From the IMG/VR virus record IMGVR_UViG_2706796186_000001, positions 160,001 through 224,000 of that record: a stretch of 64,000 bases of DNA. The stretch is one strand, 5' to 3'. Within the stretch, counting starts at the first letter, position 1. Every line of letters begins with the position of its first letter. A model generated the notes under the pieces. That model made no database searches and was not told the DNA's origin. It saw only the letters and a program-made list of their open reading frames with translations. This document shows positions 4,538-41,373 of this stretch, in pieces. This DNA comes from a virus. Its lineage: Duplodnaviria > Caudoviricetes. Both the position numbers and the translations under genes were made by a program.

Positions 4538-4620
4538 CAGTTTGGCCCTGTAACGTTTTCCCCTAAGATGTTATCCTGGTTGCAGGGTCCTTTTTATTCT
4601 TGACTATCGAGGTTTATATC

Positions 4621-5166
4621 ATGATTACTTCTATTACCACAGCTGTCAATACCGCCCGTCGTTATTTCGAAGTGAAAACCGCGTACAACATTGATCGGTT
4701 CCGTTTCCAGTCAATGGTCTCCACTGCCCACAAACTGCTCACCCTGTCTGATGCGATTCGTCGTGACGGGGATGAGCAGGCGGTGGCGCTGGCAGAGAGT
4801 ATCAGCCATCACTGGTTTACCAAAACGCTGGGTTCTAGCCTGTTCGCCGAACACAAGGAAGCCTTCCTTGCAGTACAGTCGTGGATTTATGCGTCAGGCC
4901 ACCAGTTCGATGTGTCACAGAACCAGTACGCAACCGATGAGTATTGTCAACATATTCTGGTCTTACCACCTGCTACCTCGACGCCAAAGATTCTGAACAT
5001 GACCAATTCAGAAATGGCGTTACCGGATTTCGTGCGCTCGGAAATGCACAAAAAGGCAAACGGTGTGCTGCAAATTGGCAAGCGTCGTTTACCTATCTTC
5101 GATTTTACTCGCCGTGAGTGTGGACCGTCGTACAATATCGTGAGCGGATATTGGCCGACTGTCTAA
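4621..5166 (+). CDS. Hypothetical protein
   Basis: ATG follows GAGG; a terminator lies downstream. Confidence 0.7.
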   Translation: MITSITTAVNTARRYFEVKTAYNIDRFRFQSMVSTAHKLLTLSDAIRRDGDEQAVALAESISHHWFTKTLGSSLFAEHKEAFLAVQSWIYASGHQFDVSQNQYATDEYCQHILVLPPATSTPKILNMTNSEMALPDFVRSEMHKKANGVLQIGKRRLPIFDFTRRECGPSYNIVSGYWPTV

Positions 5167-34708: not shown

Positions 34709-35137
34709 ATGAATACACTGTCTTTCGAAGCGGGTAAAGGGTTAAGCGTTAACGGACATCTGGTACCGGACACCAACAACCACCATTTTGAAAAGCTCTA
34801 CCGCCGTATCGGGGTAGGGCGTAAGGTCAACCTGAAAATCACCAACGAGATTGCCCTCAATGGCAACGTGGCGGCTTTAGGTCCGATGTATGGCTTCCGT
34901 CCAAGCCAAGACGCTGCTGCTGCCCTGTTGCAGCACGGTGAGTTTAGCAGCGGTGTGTACGCATTCCGTTTACTCGGTTCGCTACGTCGGGTGTCGAACA
35001 AACACGTTGGTCAGGGCATGACGCCAACCGTTTTACAAAGCGGTGAGATTATTGTCCTCGTACATTCCAATCACGAATATAAGTCGGGTTTGGATTTCAT
35101 GATTAGCTATTCCGAAGTGGAGAATGCAGATGTCTGA
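34709..35137 (+). CDS. Hypothetical protein
   Basis: 142-aa ORF, first in the operon. Confidence 0.7.
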   Translation: MNTLSFEAGKGLSVNGHLVPDTNNHHFEKLYRRIGVGRKVNLKITNEIALNGNVAALGPMYGFRPSQDAAAALLQHGEFSSGVYAFRLLGSLRRVSNKHVGQGMTPTVLQSGEIIVLVHSNHEYKSGLDFMISYSEVENADV

Positions 35138-36014
35138 TAAAGCTTACCCCGTCTTAAAGAACTTTGAACGTGTCGATACGTGGAACACCAATTCAGACAT
35201 TTATCGTCATGGTAATGTGCATCAGCAGTCGCTGAAAATGTATCGCCATCTTGGTGATCTGTGTGAAGGCGTCCAGAAAATGAAACAGCTGGATGTGGCC
35301 TCCGCGATGGGTAAGTTTGTGGTGGCGTTGGTCGGCGTGGCTTCCTTCGCAGGGGTCGATGCAGAGGAGCTGGATGAGCTTTACAGCTACGCAGGCAGAA
35401 AGGCTACGGCATGTACCCCAGCGCAAGCTGCGTGCAATCTGGTGCGTTCTACGACGTCTATGGTCAACGATATCAACCAGTGGTTGTCTCCGGCGGGTAC
35501 GCAGATGGCCAGAGCGATTGCAACGTCCTCTATCTGCGAAGTTTTCTGTTTGCTCAAGCAGAATGCTTCCTTGAATGCGGTGGTGTTAGACCGCACGATT
35601 GAGAACGCCACGAACTGTCTTCTGAAAAAGACCGGTAAGATGGACGAGTTCGGCATCTTCCATCCCGAGGCAGCTGAGCCTACCCGCTTCGGCGGTGAAG
35701 TAACGGCTCGGGGCGAAGCGCTGTGGGCTAAACAGTTTATCCTCAACGGGTTGAAAGGACGGTTCGCCGAATTGACCGTTCGCTTCCAGTTTGAAGTCGT
35801 GGGTGATGACATCTCCGAGGTGATTGAGCAGGACATGAATGTCAAACTCAAGGAGCTGTTAGAGAAACATGTCTTGCGCAAGCCTGAGTACCGCCATCTC
35901 ATGAACGACCGTAAGCCCGCAATCGTCGCGGTGAAGAACCATGATCAACTTGAGGTTCTCCCGAACGACGATCTCAAGGAACTGCTTAACGAATTAGAAA
36001 AGGTAACTGGCTGA
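35124..36014 (+). CDS. Degenerate MazG-like protein with a C-terminal extension
   Basis: Aligns by eye with 39151..39984, but the metal-binding acidic residues are replaced. Confidence 0.55.
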
Positions 36015-37069
36015 TGAAACAGTATTTGGAATTGATGCACACCGTGTTGAACGAAGGTCACGAGAAAGCTGACCGTACCGGCACGGGCACCATCTCTATT
36101 TTCGGGTATCAGATGCGTTTTGACCTGCGCAAAGGGTTCCCGCTGGTCACCACCAAAAAGTTGCACCTGCGATCTATCATCCACGAACTGTTGTGGTTCC
36201 TGAACGGCGACACCAACATCCAGTATCTGAAAGACAACAACGTCAGTATCTGGGATGAGTGGGCAGATGAAGATGGCGATCTTGGCCCCGTCTACGGTAA
36301 GCAGTGGCGTGCATGGGTTGCTGACAAAATGGTGTCTATTGATGACATGAACCTACGCCAGCATTTGGAAGACGAAGGGTATATCGAGCGTGACATGATG
36401 TCTATCGAAGGGGAGCATTATTTCCTTTACAGCAAAACCATCGATCAGATTCAGACTATCATCGACCAACTGCGTAACGATCCTGACAGCCGTCGCATCA
36501 TCGTCAGTGCGTGGAATGTGGGTGAACTTGACCAGATGGCGTTAGCGCCCTGCCATTCGTTTTTCCAGTTCTACTCTCGCCCGATGATGGGCAAAGAGCT
36601 GGATGCGTATTTGGCGGAGTACCTTAAAACCGATGCGCAGTTAGCCGAAAAACACGCCGAGCAAGTTGCCCTTTGTGAGGCTGACCCGGAAGGGGATCAC
36701 GTTAGCACGCACATGTTCTGCCTGACCAACGATATACCGACGCGTGTACTGTCCTGTCAGCTTTACCAGCGCAGTGCAGACGTCTTCCTCGGTGTCCCGT
36801 TCAACATCGCTTCGTACGCTCTGTTGGTTCACATGGTGGCACAGCAGGTCAATATGGTGGCGGGTGATTTCGTCTGGACGGGCGGCGATACCCATCTGTA
36901 CTCTAACCATCTGGAACAGGCCACGTTGCAGCTCTCCCGTGTACCGCATGATCTGCCTAAGCTCGTTATCAAACGTAAACCGGATTCCATTTTCGACTAT
37001 AAGTTCGAAGATTTTGAAATCGTGGGTTACGAAAGCCACCCACCCATTAAGGCACCGGTTGCCATCTAA
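36014..37069 (+). CDS. thyA: Thymidylate synthase
   Basis: [50 protein letters not shown]; two in-frame insertions. Confidence 0.98.
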
Positions 37070-37078
37070 GGAACACGT

Positions 37079-37579
37079 ATGTCCGACAACGTACTGAAGT
37101 TTCCAGGTAAACCTAATGCACATCCAGTCGTTGTCGCGCCCCGCGAGCATCGCGCACACTTTCCTATCCACACTCGTGATGGGAAGGTGGACGCGTTTAC
37201 AGTACCGGCGTGTGATATGTATTGGTGGGCGGCGATTTACGAACAGGTGGCGGCCACCAACCCGTATTTCGAAAACGTCTTTTACTTTTACTCCGAACCT
37301 TACGGCTGGCAGAATCAATCCTTTACGAAACGTAAAGTGTCGTGTGAATTGACGATTGACCGCCGAACCCTGATAGAGATATTGAAAGCGGTGTCCTATA
37401 CGCACATTCTGTCTCTTGACGGTTACCTGAACGATAACGATTACGAGATAGTCCATGACAATGCCATCATGGTGTTGGCTGACGATTTAGAAATCGATTA
37501 TGCGATGGGGATCTTCATGTCCCCGACAACGAACCCCGACCGGTTCATCATTAATTTCGTGGAATGCCATAATGACTGA
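37079..37579 (+). CDS. Hypothetical protein
   Basis: RBS AAGGA. Confidence 0.75.
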   Translation: MSDNVLKFPGKPNAHPVVVAPREHRAHFPIHTRDGKVDAFTVPACDMYWWAAIYEQVAATNPYFENVFYFYSEPYGWQNQSFTKRKVSCELTIDRRTLIEILKAVSYTHILSLDGYLNDNDYEIVHDNAIMVLADDLEIDYAMGIFMSPTTNPDRFIINFVECHND

Positions 37580-38447
37580 CAAACTCAATAACCTGTATTT
37601 CTTCTCTGACCGTTTCTACACCATGCCGGGTGACAACTACTCCTTCGGTATTGTTGCTGCGAAAGACACGGCCGAAGCCAAACTGATGCTGGGCACCGAA
37701 CTGGTTGATGGCCTGCCGCTGGCCACCACGAACGCAACCGGCCAGATTCTGTGTGCGGAAGAAATCCGTCACATCGAACCGCGTGCCGACAGCGTAGCGA
37801 AAACCGTGGTTGCTGACCTGTGGAAACTGAATGACGGCGTGGATGTTTCCGAGCGTGTGAAATACCTGCGCGAAACCATTTCGAAAATGCAGGGTATTGA
37901 CTGTAGCGTACTGGAAGTGGACTTCACCCGTTGTCTGCGTATTCCGGGCGGCTGTACCAGCACCGGCAGTGACCTGTGGCGCATCATGGTGAAACACCCA
38001 GACTTCCCGAACACCGTACCGATCATGCTGTCTGCGCAGGGCGACGGTTCAATCACCGGTAACGATGATGTGAACTTCACCAAACTCGGTGAAACCGAAG
38101 AGTACACCTACCACGAAAATGTGGATCGTGTGCTGACGCCTGAATGGCTCCTGCTGGACTTGTTGGAACAGCACGGCCTGACCCCAGAAGACTGGTACGT
38201 GATTGCCGGTACGGCGCGTGCAGCAGCCTATAGCGCTGCCCCGGTAGACGGCTGGGAAGAAGTGAACGAAGTGTATGGTCAGAATGAAAGTGCGCACGTT
38301 ATCCGCTTCTGGCTGAACCCAGACTGGCAGAACCTGATTGTGGCGGCTGTGGCGAAAGTGGTTGAGTCCATGCCAAAAGAGCCGCTGCCAGAAAACCTCG
38401 CCGACGAACTGGCGGGTTCCGAATCTGCGGACGAAGCCGCAGAGTAA
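37572..38447 (+). CDS. Acidic hypothetical protein
   Basis: Start MTDKLN, overlaps the upstream stop. Confidence 0.75.
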   Translation: MTDKLNNLYFFSDRFYTMPGDNYSFGIVAAKDTAEAKLMLGTELVDGLPLATTNATGQILCAEEIRHIEPRADSVAKTVVADLWKLNDGVDVSERVKYLRETISKMQGIDCSVLEVDFTRCLRIPGGCTSTGSDLWRIMVKHPDFPNTVPIMLSAQGDGSITGNDDVNFTKLGETEEYTYHENVDRVLTPEWLLLDLLEQHGLTPEDWYVIAGTARAAAYSAAPVDGWEEVNEVYGQNESAHVIRFWLNPDWQNLIVAAVAKVVESMPKEPLPENLADELAGSESADEAAE

Positions 38448-38469
38448 CTTAACTGAAAAGGTGAATAAA

Positions 38470-38922
38470 GTGTCTACGACTCTAATCAATTACGATTTAG
38501 TAGTGCAAGAACTTTCCAAGGGGTTGGTTGCCCTCGACAGCGAAACGGCGTTGCGTTGCAATATGCTTCCCCATATCGCGCTCAGTGAGTTCCGCACCAT
38601 TCGTTATGGTGCCGGACGCCAGAACGGGGTAACCGAACATGCTTCAAAATTAGCTGCGGAGCATAATGGCCCAGCACTGGTTCTTACGCATGCGGTGTCG
38701 TTACGGGACGATTTCATGTTTCGTGTCGAAGGTAACTTTCCGGGTAAGGGCAACATCACTTCGTTATGTGGGTACTTCCCCGACAATTGGCGAGTTGAGA
38801 AGTTCAGTCTCGTTATTGTTGATGAAGCCGGTTTCTTCTTTAAGAAATTTGGCTACGATAAAATCTATCGCAGTCTGGCAACACAAACGACTGACGATGT
38901 TGTGATTCACCTGATTAACTGA
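38470..38922 (+). CDS. Small degenerate P-loop protein (terminase/helicase-ATPase-like)
   Basis: GRQNGVT (Walker A lacking Lys) and LVIVDEAGF (Walker B). Start is uncertain (38461 or 38470). Confidence 0.6.
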   Translation: MSTTLINYDLVVQELSKGLVALDSETALRCNMLPHIALSEFRTIRYGAGRQNGVTEHASKLAAEHNGPALVLTHAVSLRDDFMFRVEGNFPGKGNITSLCGYFPDNWRVEKFSLVIVDEAGFFFKKFGYDKIYRSLATQTTDDVVIHLIN

Positions 38923-38930
38923 GGTTTGTA

Positions 38931-39095
38931 ATGTCCCAAGTAGAAAAAGAAGTCATCGCACAAGCAGATACCACCACACTGGACGATTTGTTCGGGGGTG
39001 ATATTCCGGGCGTGGATGAGAATGCAGTAGTTGAAGGTGGTGTTGATGCGGCCGCTGAAGACGACAACTGTGCAGGCGGTGCCTGCAAAATTTAA
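38931..39095 (+). CDS. 54-aa acidic peptide ending in an RNR-alpha-like redox tail (not in the ORF track)
   Basis: RBS GAGG at 38921; MSQVEKEVIAQADTTTLDDLFGGDIPGVDENAVVEGGVDAAAEDDNCAGGACKI. Confidence 0.8.
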   Translation: MSQVEKEVIAQADTTTLDDLFGGDIPGVDENAVVEGGVDAAAEDDNCAGGACKI

Positions 39096-39101
39096 CAAGA
39101 G

Positions 39102-39136
39102 CGGGTGTCCTTATGGACACCCCTATTTCATTTTTT
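39102..39136 (+). terminator. Probable terminator
   Basis: GGGTGTCC-TTAT-GGACACCC followed by a T-rich tail. Confidence 0.7.
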
Positions 39137-39150
39137 AAGGACTATCAGAA

Positions 39151-39984
39151 ATGCAACAGACTTTTGAGTTACCGATTGAACACAAAGCCATCATCCTGAA
39201 TAGCGCTATCTTAGATTTCGTCATGCCTCAGTTGGCGGCTGCCGGTAAACGGATGTCTCGCATTACGCGTCTGGCACTCAGCAGTGAAGGCCCACAGACG
39301 CTGGTTAACGGTTTTACCTTTGAAGGTGAACCGGCAGAATTCCACGCGATGTTGCGTTATCACACCGCGCTCGACTTCCACAAAGAGCCGGTCTACCATA
39401 ACCGCATCGTCCCGCTGTACCGTGTGTCACAATGTGTGGCCAAAGTCATTGGCTGGTCAACTGACCGCGGTATTCTGGAAAACGGCCGTTGGGACTCACA
39501 GGGTACCAAGCTGTATGAAGAAGACGGTGAAGCCGCAACTGGCGTGGGTAAAAACAAAAAGCGTCTGATCATCGACGGTATCGGTGATGCGCTGGTTGTA
39601 CTGGTCAACGTACTGGAACTGACCAGCATCGATGCGGCAGAAATTGCGCACATCTATCAGCTGGTTCGTGACACCAAAACGGTGGTGGATAACCCACACT
39701 ACCATTTCCACAAGATGCGTAAGAACCTGACCGAAGTGGTCGATGTGGTTTACGAATGCGAAGCCATCGATTCGCCGAAGAAAGTGGAAATCGGTCGCTT
39801 AACGCACGACGAGCGTCAGCAGATGTTGGGCCATGCGCAGCAGGCAATCCATCATGCCAACCAACTGGCACGCCGTTACGATTACTCGCTGGATGAGTGC
39901 TTCTCTCTGGCGTGGGATGAAATCAAAGACCGTAAAGGTTTCCTGAACGCTGACGGTGTGTTCATCAAAGAAGCCGACGCTTAA
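39151..39984 (+). CDS. MazG-like nucleotide pyrophosphohydrolase
   Basis: W..DRGI, KLYEEDGE, DGIGDALVVL, ECF..AWDEIKDRKG....GVFIKE. Confidence 0.85.
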   Translation: MQQTFELPIEHKAIILNSAILDFVMPQLAAAGKRMSRITRLALSSEGPQTLVNGFTFEGEPAEFHAMLRYHTALDFHKEPVYHNRIVPLYRVSQCVAKVIGWSTDRGILENGRWDSQGTKLYEEDGEAATGVGKNKKRLIIDGIGDALVVLVNVLELTSIDAAEIAHIYQLVRDTKTVVDNPHYHFHKMRKNLTEVVDVVYECEAIDSPKKVEIGRLTHDERQQMLGHAQQAIHHANQLARRYDYSLDECFSLAWDEIKDRKGFLNADGVFIKEADA

Positions 39985-40016
39985 TTCACGTCCACTAACA
40001 ATGCAGGAGTAGGACA

Positions 40017-40871
40017 ATGGAATACCAATTATTTCTCATCACGAACGACTTTACCAAATCCTTTGTGGACGAGTCGTTTCATGCCACGGTAGTTGCGCCG
40101 ACAGAGGCCGCTGCTCGTTGGATTGTTGCCCAGCAATGTACTGACCTTCCGATGAATGAAGTGCAGGCTGCGGTAGCTTTTGCAGTGGGTAAGATTGACG
40201 CCCCTGCCGAGGGAATAATTTCTTTTGAGTTCGGGAAACGTAATCGGTTCCCGCTTGTTAACCTCGACGCCTACAAGCGCCGTGAAGAGTTCGTTGAAGT
40301 TGAGCTGCATGGCGGAATACAACCGACACACGATATTCATCCGCCGGTGCCGGGTGCGGTGGTCAAATGTTTCGCGAGCAAAGAGCATCCGCGAATCGTG
40401 TTGATCCGCAGCACACTCAAAACCAGCACGCCGACCCTCATTGAAGAAGTGGGTGTGACGAACGAAGCCACATCGGTTCAGCTTTACACTGTTCATTCGC
40501 CGTCGGCGTATGCCGAGGTGGCAAAAGGTGAAGTCTTCACCACTGAGTACATCAATCTGTTTGGTTGTGAAGATGTCCTGCTGTTCCGCACGCTCATCAT
40601 TCGCAACACCGAGCTGGCTTATCAGGACAAACGCACGGAAGGGTTATTGCAGGAACTGCAATCGTTCTTCACCGAAGGGGGCGATCGTAACAGCATGGAA
40701 GTGGGCATCAGCTACTATCCGGGCCAGAAGTTGACCATTGCTGATCCCACCAAGGTGGTGCTGTGGGTCATGTCGTTACCGCAGGTCATCACCCTCGACC
40801 GGACGATTACGGAAGAGAGCCTCAAGCCGATTGCAGGCACTAACTGCCACACCCTGAACGCGGGAGAGTAA
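40017..40871 (+). CDS. Hypothetical protein
   Basis: RBS AGGAG. Confidence 0.75.
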   Translation: MEYQLFLITNDFTKSFVDESFHATVVAPTEAAARWIVAQQCTDLPMNEVQAAVAFAVGKIDAPAEGIISFEFGKRNRFPLVNLDAYKRREEFVEVELHGGIQPTHDIHPPVPGAVVKCFASKEHPRIVLIRSTLKTSTPTLIEEVGVTNEATSVQLYTVHSPSAYAEVAKGEVFTTEYINLFGCEDVLLFRTLIIRNTELAYQDKRTEGLLQELQSFFTEGGDRNSMEVGISYYPGQKLTIADPTKVVLWVMSLPQVITLDRTITEESLKPIAGTNCHTLNAGE

Positions 40872-40872
40872 T

Positions 40873-41373
40873 ATGTTTGATGTGGACGTCGTCCCCCAAG
40901 GGGACGAGTTCGCAGTACAGATAAACGGCGTCACCATCTGTGTCTGCGACGAACAACGGGCTAACTTCTGGCGTTGCTGTACGGGAGCAGATAAAGTCTT
41001 CGTCAGCTGTGACGTCGGTGTGTCGTTTGGTGAAGAACCACTGCGGTTGTGTAAGTTCCGTATCACTGAAACGGAAATGCGCACGTTCCTCGGACAGGTA
41101 GTCTACACCTACGACCATCTCGACCATGAGAACCGTGTGGGTTGGGTAGAAATTGACCCGACCATCATGCGGACGTTACGTCAGGACGCTGAGGAGATTG
41201 TTGAGTCACAAAGCATGTGGCTTGATGAGGATGACGTGTACCCGAAAGGGGTACCGTTTATCCTTATCCATCCCGAACGCAACAGCCGTACTGGGGAAGC
41301 CTTTATTGAGCTGATGTTTATCGAAATGCCGGAGAACGATGATGTCGAAGAAAAAGAACCAGCTGACTTTTAA
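40873..41373 (+). CDS. Hypothetical protein
   Basis: RBS GGAG. Confidence 0.75.
   Translation: MFDVDVVPQGDEFAVQINGVTICVCDEQRANFWRCCTGADKVFVSCDVGVSFGEEPLRLCKFRITETEMRTFLGQVVYTYDHLDHENRVGWVEIDPTIMRTLRQDAEEIVESQSMWLDEDDVYPKGVPFILIHPERNSRTGEAFIELMFIEMPENDDVEEKEPADF

Follow-up and report, generated by a model that had tools for sequence, protein, structure and literature searches.

Cells make DNA precursors de novo by ribonucleotide reductase (RNR) alone, and in every turnover the enzyme must be re-reduced through its C-terminal tail. In Aeromonas phage Aeh1, the large-subunit gene nrdA exists as genes in pieces, split by the mobE homing-endonuclease gene, and in yeast, small RNR regulators of the Sml1/Spd1 type inhibit the enzyme by binding R1. 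During each class I turnover the active-site cysteine pair is oxidised and then re-reduced by a flexible C-terminal cysteine pair, which is in turn reduced by thioredoxin or glutaredoxin (PMC11903788; PMC9669993). Work on mouse RNR showed that free dithiols can directly reduce the active-site disulfide, and that this route, operating beside the enzyme's own tail, makes activity up to about 3-fold higher because the enzyme's own tail must leave the site for recharging (PMC4078304). Components of the relay can also move between polypeptides, as in Facklamia ignava, where NrdB is reported to carry a fused glutaredoxin domain (PMC6187632).

The locus analyzed here lies in a 64,000-nucleotide stretch of viral DNA (the window; positions 160,001 to 224,000 of IMG/VR record IMGVR_UViG_2706796186_000001) and compares with each of these systems in a different way. 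As in Aeh1, a phage nucleotide-metabolism gene appears to have been cut by a spreading inserted gene, with both pieces kept and separately expressed, but what has been split is no RNR, the insert encodes a RecA-like P-loop domain with no recognisable homing endonuclease, and the detached piece is a putatively disordered tail alone. Like the Sml1/Spd1 regulators, the phage peptide is small, predicted to be disordered and would act at the interface used by the C-terminal tail of the large subunit; unlike them, and with no sequence likeness to them, it appears to copy the tail itself with both redox cysteines. The F. ignava protein offers a parallel in which an RNR electron-relay component is relocated as a module to another polypeptide, with the difference that there the reductant glutaredoxin moved onto the small subunit whereas here the acceptor tail would have moved off RNR and onto phage proteins or a free peptide. 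Literature searches returned general RNR papers only, and none of the papers covered describes a virus with an NrdA tail that stands free or has moved to another protein.

Results

The microprotein gene that carries the NrdA-like tail stands in a string of forward-strand genes with the following features.

36014–37069, + strand: thymidylate synthase gene thyA, the first recognisable gene of the nucleotide-metabolism string
37572–38447, + strand: body gene (291 aa, PHROG 10453), whose product in relatives runs at its C-terminus into the tail
38470–38922, + strand: intervening gene (150 aa, PHROG 2586, GTG start), encoding a single RecA-like P-loop domain
38921–38924, + strand: Shine-Dalgarno sequence GAGG of the tail ORF, 6 nt 5′ of the ATG
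38931–39095, + strand: tail microprotein gene (54 aa), an apparent mimic of the NrdA C-terminal redox tail
39103–39138, + strand: intrinsic-terminator-like hairpin and T-run, closing the thyA-to-tail gene string
39151–39984, + strand: MazG-like nucleotide pyrophosphohydrolase gene (phrog_7855, E 5e-121), directly downstream of the tail

The tail open reading frame (ORF) runs from an ATG at 38931 to a TAA at 39093–39095 and comprises 54 codons. It encodes an acidic peptide (pI about 4; 13 Asp/Glu versus 2 Lys/Arg) with the C-terminal sequence EDDNCAGGACKI, in which the last residues are DDNCAGGACKI. A first, sequence-only reading of this DNA had described an ORF with its own GAGG ribosome-binding site and a downstream hairpin in thyA/MazG surroundings, and all of these elements are present as noted. 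The GAGG overlaps the stop codon of the upstream gene, suggesting translational coupling, and the hairpin at 39103–39122 has an 8-bp stem, 6 pairs of which are GC, and leads into a T-rich run. Weak matches to the small RNA MicX over the terminator (23 bits; gathering score 75) were taken as chance. Chance origin of the tail motif itself is excluded by its expectation, as DDxCxxGACKI at an ORF C-terminus should occur 2.5e-8 times in the whole phage genome, and no second ORF with an NrdA-like tail end is found elsewhere in that genome.

In relatives the tail ORF is already called as a gene and labelled a hypothetical protein. The window peptide is a member of PHROG 14561, which it matches across the full profile (phrog_14561, E 4.2e-31; residues 4–54 against profile positions 1–51 of 51). 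The tail family as a whole is distributed over four PHROG groups (14561, 24014, 38753 and 20277), all listed as of unknown function; the latter three are length variants within the tail family, and the entries record neither the NrdA likeness nor a fusion to PHROG 10453. A sequence search of PDB chains with the tail peptide returned no match at E up to 10.

The host record of the tail ORF is a 240,761-bp virus genome, complete according to CheckV, and its nearest GenBank relative is Salmonella phage pSal-SNUABM-04 (Machinavirus), with about 93% nucleotide identity over 36000–41000. We identified tail orthologs in three genera, Machinavirus, Seoulvirus and Erskinevirus, positioned directly upstream of the MazG-like gene in the annotated relatives. 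These include the orthologs of pSal-SNUABM-04, pEa_SNUABM_43/42 and pEa_SNUABM_10/6, the Seoulvirus ortholog SPN3US_0234, the Erskinevirus orthologs of phiEaH2 and Asesino (gp255), and further orthologs in Caitlin (gp246) and ChrisDB. A tblastn search with the window peptide alone reaches only 7 phage records, and the SPN3US-, phiEaH2-, Asesino- and ChrisDB-type tails were located through synteny. Across 1.84 billion representative sequences, an exhaustive HMMER search returned 12 proteins at E up to 1e-3, of which 10 are tail proteins (nine small stand-alone proteins of 40–92 aa and one of 120 aa). Gene products gp232–235 of SPN3US are not mentioned in the essential-gene paper on that phage.

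Comparison of the orthologs reveals a conserved block, IPGLDPD..VEGGVD..(E/D)D(E/D)xCxxGACKI, in which both cysteines and the last five residues are invariant, behind N-termini that vary freely. The codons of the tail vary synonymously between phages while the encoded residues stay fixed. The last 21 codons give pS 0.59 and pN 0.11, the last 11 codons give a pN/pS of 0.12, and overall the values range from 0.12 to 0.19 for pN/pS, 0.5–0.6 for pS and 0.06–0.11 for pN. The expression signals are kept as well, with an SD-like purine run 6–9 nt 5′ of the ATG in 10/10 stand-alone orthologs examined and a terminator hairpin 3′ of the ORF in the relatives of all ten; the hairpins of phiEaH2 and Asesino have two arms that each differ from those of the window and are still complementary (GGTGTGTCC/GGACACACC against GGGTGTCC/GGACACCC). 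Judged by these substitution patterns, the tail ORF is a genuine gene under purifying selection, and the conserved stand-alone ORF that the sequence-only reading proposed to look for in related jumbo phages is borne out in the three genera.

We next compared the peptide with the C-terminus of class Ia NrdA. E. coli NrdA does end as the sequence-only reading stated (K-12 nrdA in NC_000913 ends DDGCESGACKI), and the phage peptide has the hallmarks of such a tail, a CX4C dithiol, a GACKI end and a preceding acidic run. Profile alignment with hhalign pairs the phage tail with E. coli NrdA residues 739–761 at E 3e-4. We then searched 201 genomes from the host order, which contains Citrobacter and Escherichia, for the pattern C-x-x-G-A-C-K-I-stop and found it in 123 of them, once in each apart from one genome with two sites; the reversed pattern gave 0 sites in the same 201 genomes. 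We counted CAGGACKI, exactly the last 8 residues of the phage peptide, at about 70 of the 124 sites, with CEGGACKI and the E. coli form CESGACKI as rarer endings. Each of four sites sampled closes an ORF of about 770 aa, and Pfam analysis of two of the four detected an ATP-cone, an all-alpha domain and the RNR barrel, identifying class Ia NrdA. A named class Ia NrdA of Pseudidiomarina ends DDDCAGGACKI, and the E. coli-type tail occurs in at least 383 genomes. Most class I RNRs carry CXXC instead of CX4C according to one analysis (PMC9669993), so the match is to the tail version of the host group and not to RNRs generally.

The likeness lies at the protein level, since the phage tail and the 3′ end of E. 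coli nrdA share only 25/42 nt. This identity rules out a recent DNA capture from an E. coli-like host nrdA, though an older capture may have taken place. In position at the C-terminus, CX4C spacing, GACKI end, acidic run and predicted disorder, the phage tail is like the class Ia NrdA tail (Cys754/Cys759 in E. coli); it differs in having no RNR barrel, as it either stands alone or is carried by a MazG-type enzyme or a phage protein whose fold is not recognised. A further difference is the phage-specific IPGLDPD..VEGGVD stretch upstream of the cysteine pair, which has no NrdA counterpart. Together, these alignments support the view that the tail peptide copies the C-terminal dithiol tail of NrdA.

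The phage itself encodes no reductase to which the tail could belong. The sequence-only reading had found no nrdA body in the window, and this absence extends to the 240,761-bp genome (PF02867, PF00268 and PF13597 negative). Six-frame profile searches of the whole genome detected no RNR large subunit, small subunit or class III RNR, and no thioredoxin or glutaredoxin, while the positive controls were matched in reference genomes. The RNR large subunit is likewise absent from four other near-complete tail-bearing genomes (G001, Caitlin, ChrisDB and SPN3US), and neither the peptide nor the body protein has any Pfam match, including to the class Ia NrdA domains (PF02867 barrel, all-alpha domain, ATP cone). 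Any RNR or redoxin partner of the peptide must therefore be the host's.

We identified the likely origin of the stand-alone tail through a search for longer proteins with the family alignment, which returned five proteins of 298–314 aa with the same tail end (E 1e-16 to 1e-10). The fused proteins P0018–P0022 come from at least four separate samples of uncultured relatives with identical synteny, and over the first ~270 residues each is a homolog of the product of window gene 37572–38447. Identity to the window body is 55% for P0022, along the full length as far as the linker, and 36% for P0019. The fused loci have the gene order thyA, a ~153-aa gene, a single body-plus-tail ORF and a ~303-aa gene in the place of the MazG-like gene, and the intervening gene is missing between body and tail in loci L010, L011, L012 and L015. 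The fused form is also present in G001, a complete 236.9-kb genome with terminal repeats, in which PHROG 2586 homologs are absent throughout. Cultured-type phages have the split form, with body and tail as separate ORFs in 10/10 loci read through, and none of the tblastn matches to 43 body-bearing GenBank phages covers both parts in one piece.

The two arrangements are interleaved in phylogeny. Fused P0021 is 74% identical to split Caitlin, the fused/split label requires at least 4 changes on a maximum-likelihood tree of 15 bodies, and two well-supported sister pairs (P0026/P0022 and Caitlin/P0020) are of opposite state. With one-ORF body-plus-tail orthologs in the same gene order, the homology evidence indicates that the tail ORF is the detached end of a PHROG 10453 protein and not of a phage reductase. 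The earlier suggestion of a split phage NrdA is thus half right, in that the tail is detached but its parent is the 291-aa body protein encoded at 37572–38447 and not NrdA. The notion that the ORF is the scar of an nrdA deletion fails, as no relative examined has nrdA at the tail position.

The body protein gives little sign of RNR or thiol chemistry of its own. A combined body-plus-tail profile aligns with E. coli NrdA in its last 23 columns only, and the alignment of bodies contains no invariant cysteine, which makes it unlikely that the body is a thiol-disulfide enzyme whose own catalysis depends on the tail. The fused protein P0022 was modelled with AF2 on a shallow alignment of 11 sequences; the model places body residues 1–270 at a pLDDT of about 90 and tail residues 271–314 below 40, undocked on the body; the tail is accordingly predicted by the model to be disordered, as expected for a flexible NrdA tail. 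Fold searches with the body found nothing below E 0.02 in the PDB with Foldseek, no usable match in the ESM Atlas, and in a wide VIA search a best Z of 4.7 to cystatins that covers a single sub-domain only. A BFVD search with the body model returned orthologs and, at E 1e-5 to 4e-7 but with low TM-scores, proteins of ~275–284 aa from related phages; the latter may belong to the family of gene 40017–40871 (PHROG 12042) and would then hint at a distant paralog. Direct comparison of the body with gene 40017–40871 by hhalign is not significant (E 0.45), and we do not claim paralogy.

The tail is also found on a second, unrelated carrier. Metagenomic protein P0024 joins a pyrophosphohydrolase (phrog_671, E 2e-30) to the tail (phrog_14561, E 3e-4), and the presence of the same tail on this MazG-type protein indicates that the tail module is portable. 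The pyrophosphohydrolase family of P0024 differs from that of the MazG-like gene in the window (phrog_7855).

The gene between body and tail behaves as a dispensable and mobile element, being absent in G001, mosaic in identity and associated with the at least four state changes described above. In a structure model of moderate confidence (pLDDT 71), the PHROG 2586 product matches SF2 RecA1 domains with Z 9–11 over 114–132 aligned residues in the top rows. Its Walker-A-like motif reads GRQNGVT in the window, where the lysine is missing, and GRQKG(V/A/M)T in four relatives. Compared with Caitlin, the gene is 82% identical while the body (37%), upstream gene (43%), MazG-like gene (41%) and thyA (62%) are far more diverged; compared with pEa_SNUABM_10, it is 79% identical between flanks at 93–95%; and compared with L013, it is 63% identical beside a body at 93%. 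We read this identity out of step with the flanks, together with the patchy presence, as the mark of a cassette exchanged between phages at the linker. In the close relatives pEa_SNUABM_10 (L003, 3613–3942) and L004, an extra 109-aa ORF follows the ATPase gene and precedes the tail ORF, whose annotated N-terminus in both loci is longer and unrelated (66 aa). Gene insertion thus seems to favor the linker region as a hotspot.

Other ways of joining or producing the two pieces were considered and rejected. An intron was rejected, as an Rfam scan that does detect a group I intron in thyA of relative L010 finds no catalytic intron in 35000–40000, and an intein is incompatible with a body that ends with a stop codon and an intervening gene in a different frame. 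No significant DNA repeat marks a duplicated linker around the intervening gene, and the protein likeness between body end and peptide start is matched by 917/2000 shuffles, so linker duplication was rejected.

The wider neighborhood is rich in nucleotide metabolism. Gene 36014–37069 is annotated as thyA in relatives, and PF00303 is detected on the syntenic thyA genes of loci L010–L012. A second MazG-like gene lies at 35124–36014, just upstream of thyA, and its pSal-SNUABM-04 ortholog is annotated with an NTP-PPase SsMazG domain; the tail module thus stands in one string with thymidylate synthase and two pyrophosphohydrolases. The thyA gene is uninterrupted in the window. In the fused-form relative L010 it is split by a group I intron (RF00028) at 4559–4889 (57 bits; gathering score 50) into pieces of 316 aa and 95 aa, both of which match PF00303, an arrangement that recalls the td intron of phage T4.

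Discussion

We propose that the tail is a portable NrdA-tail module acting on the host relay from thioredoxin/glutaredoxin to NrdA, most likely as an extra, trans-acting tail with a stimulatory effect, a reading to which we give a probability of roughly 0.4. A phage ATPase gene (38470–38922) would have parted body and tail; the tail now has a ribosome-binding site and a start codon to itself, and in some relatives the two are one protein, either still or once more. Host Trx1 or Grx1 would then reduce the Cys47/Cys52 pair of the peptide, and the reduced peptide would enter the NrdA active site and re-reduce its disulfide in trans while NrdA's own tail is away for recharging. The outcome would be a raised turnover of host RNR for phages that build 240-kb genomes and have no RNR of their own. 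We infer both the partners (Trx/Grx and NrdA) and the direction (stimulation). A supernumerary trans-acting tail is favored by the combination of a 240-kb genome with the lack of an RNR, and the repeated flips between fused and split forms suggest that the tail can work attached or unattached.

Several observations weigh against an extra trans-acting tail. The tethered tail of NrdA has a very high local concentration, so that a free peptide may add little, and such a peptide might also compete and inhibit. The fusion partners fit docking or recruiting at least as well as electron shuttling, and the IPGLDPD..VEGGVD stretch has no place in the NrdA tail that is being copied.

The same mimicry would suit a decoy or inhibitor that competes with the NrdA tail, either for Trx1/Grx1 or for access to the active-site cleft of NrdA, throttling host RNR or diverting thiol-reducing power, for example in host replication shut-down or in reshaping dNTP pools. 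Competition would come naturally to a free peptide that copies a tethered tail, and yeast Sml1, a small disordered protein that interferes with the R1 tail, counts in favor of this explanation. We nonetheless regard it as unlikely, as RNR-less phages with thyA and MazG-type genes need deoxynucleotides and blocking their sole de novo source looks self-defeating, and because both cysteines are kept, though one would suffice for a trap.

We assign an equally low likelihood to a role as a docking tag, in which the tail would anchor the body or the MazG-type enzyme to host NrdA or a redoxin in a dNTP-synthesis complex and, in split genomes, the free peptide would re-bind the body through the IPGLDPD..VEGGVD stretch. 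This explanation accounts well for a tail carried by two unrelated folded partners in the same gene neighborhood, for the phage-specific nature of the conserved stretch upstream of the cysteine pair and for the fusion of body and tail in several lineages. It sits less easily with the separate ORFs of all ten cultured-type loci and the lack of a joined tblastn match in the 43 GenBank records. The differing state of close relatives suggests that covalent linkage is unneeded, and the AF2 model of the fused protein leaves the tail undocked (pLDDT below 40), though from a shallow alignment.

Quite improbable, in our estimate, is a CX4C function unrelated to RNR, such as metal binding, service as the substrate of another thiol enzyme or as the precursor of a modified peptide, with the NrdA likeness arising by convergence. 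The body has neither a recognisable fold nor a conserved cysteine, which leaves the protein without an independent tie to RNR chemistry. Convergence is opposed by the match of 8/8 terminal residues and the acidic run at the very C-terminus, the setting in a nucleotide-metabolism gene string, and the same NrdA ending in the hosts. No peptide-modifying enzyme family was detected either, as the five neighbors scanned (37079–40868) gave no Pfam match to RiPP-type modifying enzymes, three of them having no known fold or family. The weakest explanation, that a short ORF just 3′ of an inserted gene is the decaying leftover of the gene broken by that insertion, is contradicted by the selection data (pS 0.5–0.6 versus pN 0.06–0.11, with tail residues invariant despite synonymous change) and by an SD, ATG and terminator kept in three genera, and is very improbable.

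A virus that carries the tail of NrdA and no RNR points to an unreported manipulation of host nucleotide supply, and the NrdA likeness gives a starting point for the function of PHROG 10453 and of the four PHROG families of the tail. The locus is also a clean natural example of how a mobile gene can, time and again, separate a putatively disordered functional module from its carrier protein and unite the two. More tentatively, and with less confidence than we place in the module itself, RNR-less jumbo phages of Enterobacterales may carry a portable 'prosthetic tail' that speeds or re-routes host deoxynucleotide synthesis in trans. If true, this would be a new form of viral takeover, in which the virus supplies an extra copy of a host enzyme's own mobile part.
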